A stretch of DNA of 64,000 bases from Octopus vulgaris (taxonomy: Eukaryota), in the NCBI GenBank assembly GCA_951406725.2, contig OX597823.1:88660001-88724000 (forward strand). Reading direction: 5' to 3'. The translations under genes and the position numbers were made by a program. Shown here piece by piece: positions 21,603 through 55,728 of this stretch. The notes under the pieces were generated by a model. That model was not told where the DNA came from and made no database searches. It worked only from the letters and a program-made list of their open reading frames with translations. Within the stretch, counting starts at the first letter, position 1; every line of letters starts with the position of its first letter.

Positions 21603-21973
21603 TACAAGAGTTAAGGATACAGTAGTTAAGATCCGGGCTCCTTATGTTTCATAGCGAGCGAAACCTCAGAAGCGTTAAGTATCCAAGCGAGGTGTATACC
21701 GCAGGCTACTTTTCAGGCCAAGGATACCTTGATTAAATGAAGGCTTAGATTGCCGCAAGGAGGTACATGCTAGCACATGGAAGATTAAATTTTCTATGTG
21801 TTAACATGTACCTCCTTGCGACAATGTAAACTTTCATGTAATGAAGATATTCTTGGCCTGAAAAGTAGCCTGCGGTATGTACGTCTCTTGGATATTTAAC
21901 CACTTCCGAGGTTTCGCTCGCTGTGAAACATATGTAGCCCGGATTTTATCTACCCCATTCCTTAACCCTTGTA
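21603..21973. repeat. Long palindrome (arms about 183 bp, loop about 3 nt) carrying hammerhead-like motifs
   Basis: Arm 21603-21785 is the diverged reverse complement of 21789-21973, e.g. ACCGCAGGCTACTTTTCAGGCCAAG / CTTGGCCTGAAAAGTAGCCTGCGGT. Confidence 0.92.
21855..21939 (+). ncRNA. Hammerhead-like motif with 60-nt stem II (core G8>A)
   Basis: GGC-CTGAAAA-GTAGC...GCTGT-GAAA-CATATG-TA-GCC; mirror copy at 21636-21719 (minus). Confidence 0.55.
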
Positions 21974-23540
21974 TACATAGATACAGATATTTACTCGAGA
22001 GTGTGTGTGCGTGTTTTAATATTTCTGTTTGAGCGTCCTCTGTTTTATTTTACCTCAGGAACATTAAGATAAACATTGGCACATACGTTAACATAAACGA
22101 GCATGAGTATTCATATTTGTGTATTTCATCAGATATCATTTAGTGAACAGAGCCGACATCTGTCTTGATTCCATTGCCCTCTTTACGTTCAGCCTGCATT
22201 TTTCTTGGCTTGTTTTAAATAATATTTCAGACTTTCATAATAATATAAGCTAGCATGAAGTGTGATATATATTAATTTTTTTTTCCTTCTTTCTTACATG
22301 CAACAAAGTATAGCAGTAGTTTAATGGAAATTTATATATTTCCATCAGAACTGTAGCAGCATCTATACATAACGGAGTGTTTTTTGTCTGAACACGATCT
22401 GTCATAATTTTCTCCGGTGATCTCCGATGAGGTCATCTGTATCACATATATCTGCTGCATTAAGTATTCTTATTTCTATCAACTCTGAACAGTTCCTCTT
22501 TAATCGAATGGTTTTACTTGGTTTAGTTTTTGCATTATTTTTGTCTGCTAGAATGCAAGCTGTTATAAATGTGTACAATGTTCTTAGATCTGAGCCTGTA
22601 TAGCATATGACCTTCCCATTAGGTCGTTCAAAAGCGCTTTTCTAAATACAGGACCTAGTCTAATGCATGCCTGTCATATGTATTCTAAGCTATTTCTGCT
22701 CTATCCTGAACTACATTCTGACCTTTTGATTTCTATTTCAGATGAAAGTTCCGAAAATGTTGGCCTTTAATTTATTTTCCAAAGTGAAAACGTCTTCTCA
22801 CAAAGACTTGTATAACTATTTTATCCAGACTTGCATGGTTTACAGGCAATATTCTGTGACACATTAGTCAGCTATCTTTCTCTTGAAGAAGAATGGCTGT
22901 AAATAGCATAGAATGTTAGTAACGCAGCTATAAATTATAAGGTATTGCTACTACTTGTAGTAGTGACATTACATATACTTACTGTCGACAGTGAAAATAT
23001 ATAAAGTATAAAGTGTTTGGGCCAACGACGTATGTATCACTGGTCATAGGAGTTGAACAATGAAATCCTTTAAACATTAGTTGACCATCTTTCTCATGAA
23101 GACATATGACTCGAAGTACCATATTTCTTAGTAATACAGCAATCAATTATAAGTCGTTGCCAGTATTGCAATAGTACTTTATTTGATATAGATATTTAAA
23201 TGTACAGTTGAGTATAAAGTGTTAGAGACAGTGATATAAGGTGGATCAGGTCATGATATTTAAATGAAAATACTGACTGTATATATCAAGCAACAAATTT
23301 GTTTTATTTACCACAACAATTGGTTTATGCACAAGAAGCAGTATCATACTAAAATAATCATCTGCGTATCATACTCACTATAAATACATCACAAAAAACT
23401 AAATTTTAGGGATAATCGTGGAGAGTTAATAAATATTATGGATGTGTTGTATTTAAAAGAAGAGACGATTTCGGTAGTAGACGAAAAGCGTCCATCAGGG
23501 GCAGGTGAGGATGCTACAAGAGCATTTCTGTTCTTGTAGA

Positions 23541-23779
23541 AGTCGGTGAGGTGGCAGAAGCGTTAGGACGGCGGGCAGAATGCTTAGCGGTATTTCGTCT
23601 GCAGTTACGTTCTGATTTCAAATTCCGTCGAGGTCTCCTTTTCTTTTCATTCCTTTCGGGGTCGATAAATTAAGAACCAGTTACGCACTGGGGTCGATGT
23701 AATCGACTTAATCCCTTTGTTCGTCCTTGTTTGTCCCTTCTATGTTTAGCCCCTTGTGAGCAATAAAGAATTATGAAAT
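23541..23779 (+). mobile_element. SINE family A
   Basis: Matches the 2351 copy; flanking direct repeat AAGAGCATTTCTG (23518-23530, 23780-23792). Confidence 0.85.
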
Positions 23780-25627
23780 AAGAGCATTTCTGCTTCTCTA
23801 CACTTTGTCAGTAACATCTACTCACTGTCGACTGCAAGCAGAGATGACATCCAACTTACTAATATATTAGTGCAATGATTAGCATTGCACTAGCCACTCG
23901 GTTGAATATCGATCTGTTTTAGGCAACAGAAACAGTATTAGATTAAAATAGCAATCTGTGCATTAAACGTAATGTAAATTAATAGCGAAAATTTATTGCA
24001 GTACTCGTCTGGAGATTGTATTTTTAAACACAAGTTCATAAAATATCCTAACTATATATTGAAAATAAAAAAATATAAAATGTAAGAAATTATATTCAAT
24101 TTGAAATAGTTGCGAACTCTGTAACTCTGCTTTCTGATTCTATTTTACAGCACACAGGCAGCAATGGAACAATCTAATCATTATCGTCAGAGTTGTATTG
24201 GAGTTTATGACGCGTGATGTTGGTTCCGTAACGCGTGGAACCTAATTTGTAAATATTTTTGCAATTAAACACTTTATAAATATATATATATGTATGTATC
24301 TTTTTTTTAAATATTGTTTTGTTCTTTTGTGACGTAATTGGCTAATTTCATTTTCTGTAAGTTAATCATTTACAAATTTTTTTTTCATACATACTTTAAT
24401 TGTATAATTACAAATATTTTATTTGTTTTGCATTTATTTTCATCATTGACTTTTCTATTTCCAATATGAAGGTCATAAGAGTTTATGTTTTGCAAATAAT
24501 TATCCAGTTTATTTTCTTAATATTAATTAACCTCATCTGTTCTTTCTCGTCTTATTTCATTAAGTGTCCTGATTACATAAGAAAATAAAATATATTTTTC
24601 TGTTCTCTTCTTCATTCTGATTTATTCAATTTTCTATTTTCATTCTTCATTTTCCGTTTACATTGTTTTTTTTTTATTTTGTTCTTGTTTTGTTTCATTA
24701 TTTTATTTGTTCGACTCCTGTTAGCAGGAGAATTCATTTTCTTTTCTCTTCTATTTTTTTATATTCTAAACACCAATTGCCTTGTATGAAATATTCTATC
24801 CTACTTCTTTTTCCCTTTTCCACCCCACCACTCGTATTCTTAATTCCTTTCGTCAAATTCCCATTCTACTTCTAAACTGTCTTTTTTACTAAATGTTAAC
24901 AATGTTACCCAAGAGACAAACAACATCAAAATCTCAGCTTACGAAATGAAATGGAGAGAAAAATTCATCAAACACAGATTAGAACCGTGTATTTGTATCG
25001 ATAAACGATGCTGAGTTCCAAAAAATTGCTACGGCTTTCGAATAAAACATTAATTAGCAAAAAATAAATAGAACCTAAAAGAAATGCATTGAGTGCTAAA
25101 AACTATCGAAACGAAAGATATAAACAATTAGATTACAACTTCTTTGAACGTTTACCCTTGCATCTCAAGAAAAAGAATTGCAATATGATTAATGCTGTTT
25201 CAGGTAATTTTTATCACAATGCTTTTTTCTGAATTTGCTATTGTTTATAGTTTCAATAGAATCGAGGACATTGCAAAATTTTTAGCGCAGAGGACTAAAT
25301 GCTTAGTGGTTGCTTACCTGATGGATTTTCATGTTGTGCATTCTAATCCCACCGAGATCAACTCCGATTTTCGCCCTTCTGGGGTCGATAAAATAAAGTA
25401 CCAGTCAAATACTAGTGGCTATGGTACAGAGTAATCCCCTGGCATTTTCAACATCGCTGGCCTTATGCCCGAATCAGAAAAACCTTTACAGTTTAAATAT
25501 TCGACTTAAGTTTTTGAATGAATGCACATGAATTTCCATGACAGTCGTTCAGGTGTTGTCAGCCTTGTCAACTGGTACATCGGCAGTTTTTAAATGACTA
25601 CGTAAGAACAAGAAACTATCCGTCTGT

Positions 25628-25741
25628 TTGTGTGTGTGTGTGTGTGTGTGTGTGTGTGTGTGTGTGTGTGTGTGTGTGTGTGTGTGTGTGTGTGTGTGTG
25701 TGTGTGTGTGTGTGAGAGAGAGAGAGAGAGAGAGAGAGAGT
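25628..25741. repeat. (GT)n(GA)n microsatellite
   Basis: Visible directly. Confidence 0.95.
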
Positions 25742-54220: not shown

Positions 54221-54363
54221 CATAACTTCCAAGGTGATCTCATTTCGACTAGCTTTGCAGTATATTATGCCCAAAAAGTCTATTAAGGGATTTTCTCGGA
54301 CGATAAACTGCAGCTGTTGGCTTGTCAGGGATCCACTTACAACAAGTATGTTTTATATATCTA

Positions 54364-54793
54364 CTAGCAGTATCGCCCGGCGTTGCTCGGGTTTGTAAGG
54401 GAAATAACTATATGAAGCATTTTTAGAGATGTAAAGTATAATAACCATCTCAATATGGCTAACCACAAAGGGGGGGGGGGGGGTACTGTACCTTTTTGCG
54501 TTCTGAGATTTAATAATAAATTTTTAGAGAGTTACTTCCTAAGGGAAGTAACTCTCTAAAAAAACAGTAATATAAAATATGCCAAAAATGCATTAATTAT
54601 GGGAAGATTGATGGTAATTTTTTTTTAATCGTAGACTCATCGTAGACGCGCGCTAATACCCAGAAAGGCTCGATATGAATCACGACTATTAGATACCCGG
54701 TTTTGGTTAAACTGCACCGCAAAATGTGGGAGTAGTTAGGAATCAAAATCGTAGGAGACAGACAGCACACATCCTCACTTTTATATATAAAGA
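54364..54793 (-). mobile_element. Non-autonomous Helitron
   Basis: Minus 5' TCTTTATATATAAAAGTG, 3' hairpin CCCGAGCAACGCCGGG plus CTAG, A|T target; 3' end matches the 12952 copy. Confidence 0.82.
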
Positions 54794-54796
54794 TAT

Positions 54797-55728
54797 AAAG
54801 CAAATAAGTAACAAGGATTCCGGGTACTAGTACATTACGGCCGTTTCAGGCGGCTCCATTGAAACGATCAATGCAAGCATTCCATCCATTTGAATTACAC
54901 CGCCTTTCTCTGAGGCATAAGAACATATAGGCTTTTTAACACACAGAACACTCCATTATATTTTCTTTAGCAAATTTTTCACCAGAACTAGAGAATAAAA
55001 GAATTACATGACTGTTGCTTTTATTGTAGCAAAATGAACTTAGGGAGAAAATACCCAACTATAATTTGGAGTGGCCAAAGAGAATAACAATGGGGGTCAG
55101 GCGATGTTAATAAAGCTACGTTTATCTTTCTCCTTATCACAATCAAAAGATTTAATGCCGCTAGTATTCTAGGGCCACTAAAAATTAAAACCACTTTATA
55201 GACGTTTTGGGTATAATATACTGCAAAGCTAAACGAAATGAGATCACCCTGGCAGTTACGGGTGACTGAAGAGGCACATTTCATAGTCGTTGCGACATGT
55301 CAATGTCACGAAATTATCATCAGCAACTAGACTTAAATGTCAAATCCCAATGGTTTTAATTCTTAATAGATGTAAAATACCAGCTGCATTAGATCTTTTG
55401 ATTGTGATAAGGAGAAAGACAAATGTAGGTATATTACCATCTCTTGACCCTTATTGTTATTCTCTTCTGCCATTCCAAATTATATTTGGGGTATTTTCTC
55501 CCTAAGTTCTGCTACAATATTGTAAAAGGCATGTAATTCTTTTATTCTCTAGTTATAATGAAGAATTTGCTAAAAAAATTATAATGGTTTATCCTGTATG
55601 ATCTTATGCATGCGAGGAAGGCGGTGCATTTCAAATTAATGTAATGTTTACACTGATCGATTAAAAGCAGTCGCCTGAAACGGCCGTAATGCACTAATAC
55701 ATAGACATCCTTGTTACTTATTTGCTTT
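54797..55728. repeat. Long inverted repeat (arms 54797-55193 and 55351-55728) carrying hammerhead-like motifs
   Basis: e.g. TCTTTCTCCTTATCACAATCAAAAGAT / ATCTTTTGATTGTGATAAGGAGAAAGA; also seen as the paralogous ORFs 55021-55284 (minus) and 55290-55505 (plus). Confidence 0.92.
55607..55693 (+). ncRNA. Hammerhead-like motif with 58-nt stem II (core degenerate)
   Basis: TGCAT-GCGAGGA-AGGCGG...TCGCCT-GAAA-CGGCCG-TA-ATGCA; the mirror copy at 54831-54917 (minus) has CAGAGAA, and the two are consistent with an ancestral CTGAGGA. Confidence 0.55.

Follow-up and report, generated by a model that had tools for sequence, protein, structure and literature searches.

The DNA considered here is a stretch of 64,000 nucleotides (nt) from Octopus vulgaris (GenBank assembly GCA_951406725.2, contig OX597823.1, positions 88,660,001 to 88,724,000 of the forward strand), hereafter the window. 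It is 34% G+C, contains zero N, and is abundant in microsatellites and dispersed short repeats. No convincing gene is present among its 70 stop-free frames of at least 100 amino acids (aa), one transposase-like remnant excepted. The four strongest local foldbacks in the window are inverted repeats, labelled E1 to E4, with L and R for their left and right arms. Their arms are 78-84% identical, and an initial annotation that had proposed four inverted repeats was right on this point. From their letters, the arms appear to carry decayed type I hammerhead ribozyme motifs for which cleavage is predicted. The repeats and their parts are the following.

21602-21974, E1 inverted repeat, arms 83.7% identical
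21602..21782, minus strand, E1 left arm, a 5'-truncated copy with its 3' end outward
21783..21974, plus strand, E1 right arm, a 5'-truncated copy; other copies extend 5' of 21783 and 3' of 21974
21430..21601, minus strand, one-sided 3' extension of E1, left copy only, outer end approximate (contig comparison)
31104-31761, E2 inverted repeat, arms 78.1% identical
31104..31400, minus strand, E2 left arm, inner end approximate
31460..31761, plus strand, E2 right arm, inner end approximate
37800-38063/38515-38777, E3 inverted repeat, arms 81.4% identical
37800..38063, minus strand, E3 left arm
38515..38777, plus strand, E3 right arm
38029..38230, minus strand, probable further 5' part of the E3 left copy
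54793-55193/55351-55732, E4 inverted repeat, arms 79.2% identical
54793..55193, minus strand, E4 left arm
55351..55732, plus strand, E4 right arm

The mutual unrelatedness that had been claimed for the four elements holds. The pairwise scores of the right arms lie inside the shuffle range for five of the six pairs (p 0.14-1.0), and the remaining pair, E3/E4, has a p of 0.025 that is not significant given six tests. A blastn comparison among E1-E4 gives zero cross-matches. AT-rich DNA adjoins every outer end of the elements, in a window that is 66% AT overall.

The spacer of E3 (38230-38515) is decayed, TA/CA-rich and unlike the arms, and is possibly host DNA trapped between two copies. The E4 spacer (55187-55312) has an inverted copy at 54169-54294 (86.5%), about 500 nt to the left of E4, so either the E4 left copy or an inserted repeat is present twice nearby.

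Read outward, each arm has the order helix I, core, a helix II domain of 58-77 nt, GAAA, a palindromic helix III of 8-10 nt, GUA, and helix I. The motif points outward in both arms of E1, E2, E3 and E4, the direction that the initial annotation had given. The helix II domain measures 60, 67, 77 and 58 nt in the right arms of E1 to E4, where these previously reported lengths, the palindromic helix III and the GAAA anchors are indeed found, and 59, 60, 77 and 58 nt in the left arms. The predicted cut lies 38-199 nt from the outer ends. None of the helix III palindromes folds alone; each pairs as a dimer, at -6.4 to -14.1 kcal/mol. The motifs are placed as follows.

21631..21724, minus strand, E1 left hammerhead: core 21716-21710, helix II 21709-21651, GAAA 21650-21647, helix III 21647-21640 (broken)
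21850..21944, plus strand, E1 right hammerhead: core 21858-21864 (CUGAAAA), helix II 21865-21924, GAAA 21925-21928, helix III 21928-21935, predicted cut after 21936
E2L, minus strand: core 31355-31349 intact, helix II 31348-31289, UAAA in place of GAAA, palindrome 31285-31276, helix I good
E2R, plus strand: core 31503-31509, helix II 31510-31576, GAAA 31577-31580, palindrome 31580-31589, helix I damaged
E3L, minus strand: core 37967-37961 intact, helix II 37960-37884, AAAA in place of GAAA, palindrome 37880-37873
E3R, plus strand: core 38611-38617, helix II 38618-38694, GAAA 38695-38698, palindrome 38698-38705
E4L, minus strand: decayed core 54912-54906, helix II 54905-54848, GAAA 54847-54844, palindrome 54844-54837
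E4R, plus strand: decayed core 55612-55618, helix II 55619-55676, GAAA 55677-55680, palindrome 55680-55687, helix I with 5 of 5 pairs

The whole motif had been ascribed to every arm. Its parts are recognisable in all eight, but all eight are damaged, and CUGAnGA, GAAA and GUA occur together only in E2R and E3R. Both E1 arms read CUGAAAA, a change of G8 to A, and the left palindrome of E1 is broken. G12 is lost in E2L (UAAA) and E3L (AAAA), and the helix II base has an A-C mismatch in each arm of E3. Natural hammerheads can have weak or unusual pairs at the helix II base (PMC3088659), so the G-U, A-C and A-U pairs seen there in these elements do not exclude activity.

The motif is more frequent than in shuffled controls, a check that the initial annotation had proposed. 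The module GAAAC-perfect palindrome-GT-H occurs seven times on both strands of the window, whereas 100 block-wise dinucleotide shuffles average 0.5 occurrences and never exceed 2. Five of the seven modules lie inside E1-E4, and two of these five are mirror images in the two arms of E4. A more complete descriptor tolerates at most 2 mismatches in the core and requires 4 of 5 pairs in each of helices I and II. Written post hoc when the motifs had already been seen, it is satisfied in four of the eight arms: E1R, E3R, E4R and E4L. E2R, with its damaged helix I, gives 0 matches. Shuffled right arms pass this descriptor in 1/2000 (E1), 1/2000 (E3) and 17/2000 (E4) cases. Window-wide it finds seven loci, three of them outside the elements; 300 shuffles average 1.07 loci, with no shuffle above 5. 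The predicted fold of helix II closes end to end at the core in six of the eight arms, against 2-16 of 300 shuffles for each, with the E4 boundary itself chosen by pairing. The stability of helix II goes beyond shuffles in only two of the eight arms (z -7.0, partly due to an ATTA repeat, and z -2.3). When E1R, E2R and E3R, the only arms scanned individually, are compared with Rfam, no hammerhead family appears up to E 10, and there is none among the best 150 of 336 matches for the whole window.

A generic long-helix-II pattern finds 100 metagenome and 4 viral loci, 48 of the 104 palindromic and 56 non-palindromic. None of the 104 has both helix I and helix II. On these two grounds, the lack of any excess of palindromes and the missing helices, all were rejected as chance matches. 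An E1-specific 25-nt pattern has 0 matches in metagenome contigs.

E1 was chosen for a comparison with public contigs because its core was doubtful. Contigs from four runs, one carrying the species label of the best-matching run and three carrying further species labels, were aligned to 21130-22100 (971 nt) at a likeness of 80; this region covers E1, a small foldback and another repeat. The contigs aligned number 4279, 4332, 2778 and 4262 per run, counts that include the two neighbouring repeats. Summed depth in the E1 bins exceeds the depth of the unique flank by a factor of 42 to about 2200, a ratio that is not a copy number. E1 is thus a high-copy family in all four runs.

The letters of the family majority, taken from the 40 of 88 difference rows listed, repair much of the E1 motif. 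The majority letter at 21863, core position 8, is G (85-91% of depth, 51-71 contigs per run), and the mirror site 21711 likewise has G8 (90-95% of depth, 119-127 contigs). The family majority core is CUGAAGA in both mirrored places. Majority letters at 21640 and 21642 (85-94%) restore the left palindrome, and the G-U wobbles at 21923 and at 21914/21661 become Watson-Crick pairs. With the majority letters, helix II shifts from -13.3/-14.0 to -16.9/-18.4 kcal/mol, with z of -2.0/-2.7.

The same letters bear on the origin of the pair. Of 17 majority differences listed in the E1 arms, 12 are private to one arm, and the five rows common to both represent two mirrored sites and one site beside an indel. 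The two arms share two departures from the family, one of which is G8A in the core. These shared departures make a single variant template for both arms probable, although they would also be explained by a minority subfamily or by a duplication at the DNA level.

The ends of E1 are asymmetric. Copies that match the right arm continue past 21974 into sequence that is present in the window on the left side only (to about 21430-21460), and the loose end at 21974 is the reverse complement of about 21570-21602. Contig pieces 21511-21726 and 21522-21716 bridge this extension and the arm, and depth drops at 21394-21426, outside the extension. The left-side-only 3' extension measures about 150-170 nt and had been missed by the initial annotation. 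Some copies of the family also continue 5' of the centre at 21783 with non-mirrored sequence. Because copies run past both 21783 and 21974, both arms are 5'-truncated and their 3' ends differ by about 150-170 nt. Relative to the cut site, the E1 copies extend for another 38 or about 200 nt.

The inner junction is variable as well. Same-strand joints from the left part to the right arm occur at no fewer than eight distinct point pairs among the rows listed (15/345 for joints, 12/75 for 'between' rows): 21735>21803, 21724>21895, 21725>21799, 21726>21783, 21759>21806, 21553>21835, 21442>21788 and 21738>21793 (one contig/run each). Pieces that cross the E1 centre have 14% other letters (28 of about 198), versus 3% (9 of 304) in the orthologous piece. 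The varied joints and this difference indicate that other loci hold head-to-head pairs cut elsewhere. The most distant species label contributes a 439-nt piece that covers 21480-21918 and has 45 other letters. Since this is about the divergence of the flank, we infer that the E1 insertion probably predates the split from that species label.

A fifth, small foldback lies beside E1 at 21216-21396, between TA runs. Its arms are 81.5% identical, it is high-copy, and its copies continue inward at 21307, again a head-to-head pair of truncated ends. The hammerhead motif is absent from its short arms.

These features are best explained, at a probability of roughly 0.7, if E1-E4 are four old insertions of four different Penelope-like families, autonomous or non-coding derivatives, that were placed head to head and are now dead. 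In such a family, the RNA of the element would have a type I hammerhead close to its 3' end; helix II would be long, and the palindromic helix III would be too weak to fold by itself. Helix III would pair with a second copy of the RNA and allow cutting. The element protein would nick AT-rich DNA and begin reverse transcription on the downstream side of the ribozyme. If copying proceeds from both target sides, or through self-priming and fold-back, it would leave two 5'-truncated copies head to head with their 3' ends outward, one of which keeps a longer 3' extension. Neutral decay of about 8-10% per copy would follow. The genomic pairs are dead: besides being damaged, the two ribozymes of a pair sit on opposite strands, and transcription through the pair would hide them in a long hairpin. 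These relics in the window show no sign of serving the host.

Several steps of this scheme have counterparts among Penelope-like elements. Their insertions can show an inverted 5'-truncated partner copy, a one-sided tail and a (TA)n bias (PMC8557442), and head-to-head is the most frequent inverted arrangement of these elements (PMC3846280). The hammerheads of Penelope elements belong to type I; their helix III is palindromic, they function as dimers, and they are found in pairs on opposite strands at distances of 100-700 bp (PMC4209133). Dimeric action is also noted in PMC6765202, citing Lünse et al. A Penelope protein studied in vitro cleaves AT-rich DNA, extends each of the two strands and starts internally in the RNA, and ribozyme-dead mutants insert equally well (PMC11167929). 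Penelope repeats are abundant in coleoids (PMC8967140).

The initial annotation had seen in all four elements retroelement relics with a ribozyme and a shared inversion mechanism. This is supported for E1, which behaves like a Penelope insertion by its high copy number, canonical majority core, variable junctions and one-sided extension. For E2-E4, alike by anatomy, it is a reasonable inference. The Penelope-like membership of the elements is likely rather than demonstrated because no protein remnant has been confirmed.

Traces of protein and RNA were sought. The left copy of E3 has a unique part (38206-38029, minus strand, one frameshift) that by eye resembles the end of a Penelope reverse transcriptase (RT) thumb, a likeness that no search confirmed. 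This thumb-like stretch stops about 60 nt before the ribozyme, so if the likeness is true there would be no C-terminal endonuclease. No RNA run was listed as matching 31000-38900.

A number of results weigh against the Penelope-like reading or limit its reach. Twelve frames from E3, E4 and 20300-20900 gave nothing below E 0.08 in Pfam, one E3 frame had 0 matches in 1.84 billion representatives, and a further frame and a read-through across one frameshift had 0 both in Pfam and in the protein collection. Neither an RT nor a GIY-YIG remnant was confirmed in these searches, blanks that are weak evidence given decayed query fragments of 59-200 aa. No target-site duplication was identified. The family-level comparison covers one of the four elements, and the E1 extension of about 150-170 nt is to be set beside tails of 30-40 bp in the papers. 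Among the 40 of 88 difference rows listed there is no two-sided (compensatory) change, the wobble repairs being one-sided, and on the same rows core conservation in the E1 family is supported at position 8, with the remaining core letters not proven. Helix II in six of the eight arms is no more stable than shuffles (z -0.4 to -1.7). The 5' cores of E4 read CAGAGAA and GCGAGGA; U4 is missing from both arms, and the E4 5' core is for this reason only inferred.

An unlikely variant, a sub-case that differs in the nature of the RNA and not in how it inserts, would make the elements non-coding retrozyme-like families, excised by the hammerhead as circular RNA and inserted in trans by a Penelope protein. 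The searches above, which found a coding remnant in no element, are in keeping with it. Non-LTR retrozymes have type I hammerheads and occur in molluscs (PMC7229834), and retrozymes have been argued to derive from Penelope pLTRs (bioRxiv 10.64898/2026.07.22.740005). Yet retrozymes are defined by head-to-tail tandem units, and none of the four elements in the window lies in a tandem array. The E1 copies stop 38 or about 200 nt beyond the cut site and not at the site itself. The thumb-like stretch of E3, if the likeness is true, would also speak against this variant.

A comparably doubtful extension assigns the elements, as 3' ends, to a Penelope lineage of Naiad-like or endonuclease-less order, in which the RT would stop directly ahead of the ribozyme, as the thumb-like stretch of E3 hints. 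The lineage would have a long-helix-II hammerhead class unseen by published descriptors. The helix III palindrome would then be a family dimer code that causes the head-to-head insertions. Such a code may resemble a retroviral kissing loop and join two RNAs of the same family at both sides of the target break. If true, the Penelope hammerhead would gain a non-cutting job, and the statement that Naiads lack hammerheads would need revision.

It is quite improbable that the hammerhead is a passenger in foldback or miniature inverted-repeat (MITE-type) DNA transposons, or in DNA-level inverted duplications of single decayed copies. The long inverted arms would suit either, and the two changes common to the E1 arms fit the duplication of an already mutated copy. 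However, E1 copies join at many inner points, many continue 5' of the centre with non-mirrored sequence, and the orientation is the same in all four elements. The outer ends of E1 are offset by about 150-170 nt, unlike fixed terminal repeats, so that E1 (the only element for which this was seen) has neither the fixed, symmetric terminal inverted repeats of such elements nor constant inner junctions.

Least probable is a motif that is partly chance, real in E1 and perhaps in E2 and E3 and a look-alike in E4, where the lost U4 and the 17/2000 shuffled arms that pass a loose, post hoc descriptor are outweighed by the presence in both arms of GAAA, GUA and an 8-nt palindrome without mismatch, by 6-9 pairs at the helix II base and a 5-pair helix I, and by the 0 of 104 chance-like metagenome and viral matches with both helices.

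Among known systems, the metazoan Penelope pLTR hammerheads of Cervera and De la Pena (2014, PMC4209133) are close to the Penelope-like relics proposed here. They share the type I order, a weak palindromic helix III for dimers, a multitude of unrelated families within one genome, copies that are for the most part truncated, and pairs on opposite strands separated by 100-700 bp. A helix II of only 6-8 bp, closed by a short loop, sets them apart from the window's domains of 58-77 nt, and so does their demonstrated link to an RT open reading frame, which is presumed for the window elements. The Hydra-clade elements and Naiads (PMC8557442) share cephalopod hosts, a hammerhead about 100 nt from the 3' end, a 4-bp self-complementary helix III, non-G-C pairs at the helix II base and an inverted 5'-truncated partner. 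Their (TA)n targets may correspond to the AT-rich DNA at the outer ends of E1-E4. The Hydra-clade helix II domains are about 9-23 nt, against 58-77 nt in E1-E4, and Naiads are reported to be without canonical hammerheads. The 3' ends of Naiad_Ovul and Naiad_Obim in its supplement have a hairpin that ends in GAAAC, followed about 25 nt later by CUGAUGA, a reversed order of parts that is unlike the window elements. Five helix III motifs of the window are absent from the supplement text of Craig et al. (PMC8557442), in which line breaks could hide a match. As far as this motif search goes, E1-E4 appear to differ from the published Octopus Naiad and Hydra consensus sequences.

Other relatives are more distant. 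PLE-X1_sMoe and PLE-X1_sTam from spike mosses (Craig et al. 2021, File S2) are Penelope-like, have a long helix II (9 + 35 + 9 nt in PLE-X1_sMoe), and are marked as deviating from the canonical form. Unlike E1-E4, they are plant elements, 28S rDNA-targeted and endonuclease-less, and their helix III is not an 8-10 nt palindrome. The inverted Penelope pLTRs of Adineta vaga (Arkhipova et al. 2013, PMC3846280) are head-to-head repeats of about 180-220 bp with a tail on a single arm; that tail is 31 bp and there are target-site duplications, whereas the E1 extension is about 150-170 nt and has none identified. Animal non-LTR retrozymes (Cervera and De la Pena 2020, PMC7229834) share non-coding-looking repeats, type I hammerheads and occurrence in molluscs. 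They form tandem units of 300-390 bp, whereas E1-E4 are inverted pairs with no tandem.

Novelty lies in the length of helix II; both the layout and a palindromic helix III have already been published. The suggestion that these elements were possibly undescribed in cephalopods stands for this feature only, since Hydra-1_Obim, a hammerhead-bearing Penelope family with a short helix II in Octopus bimaculoides, and common inverted 5'-truncated copies were described by Craig et al. (2021, PMC8557442). In that work, the Hydra-clade and Repbase hammerheads have a helix II of about 9-25 nt, the core search used a spacer of 7-17 nt, and the longest listed helix II, that of a spike-moss element, is about 53 nt. 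No report of a long-helix-II hammerhead class in cephalopods was found in titles and abstract openings; these families may be present in Repbase, in Dfam, in papers behind subscription or in supplements to Cervera 2014 and to the 2026 preprint, all of which lay outside this search.

Four unrelated families in 64 kb, with Rfam blind to E1R-E3R, suggest that the genome has a large uncounted population of long-helix-II hammerheads, and that surveys which set a short limit on helix II underestimate their number. The E1 pair is also a natural test of two open questions about Penelope elements. Its core-breaking change, present in both arms and absent from most copies, fits both a single template and the in vitro insertion seen despite a dead ribozyme. 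Thousands of such pairs could separate two-sided priming from self-priming.

Further modules and repeats lie elsewhere in the window. A GAAAC-palindrome-GUA module (ACGTACGT) is at 20880-20912, within about 20767-21200, with a degraded core only 9 nt upstream; it is possibly a short-helix Penelope end. Around it, 20767-20830 weakly resembles 21143-21215 in a partial-tandem-like manner, and 21130-21200 is high-copy. A GAAAC-palindrome-GUC module (ACTCGAGT) lies at 19110 on the minus strand, beside a dispersed repeat. Two overlapping frames at 36060-36615 presumably represent the C-terminal part of a Tc1/mariner transposase, judged from a motif. The repeat at 54354-54600, common with 12942-13015 (94.7% over 76 nt), is putatively Helitron-like. 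It starts with a G+C-rich hairpin beside CTAG and contains a 42-nt palindrome at 54521-54562.

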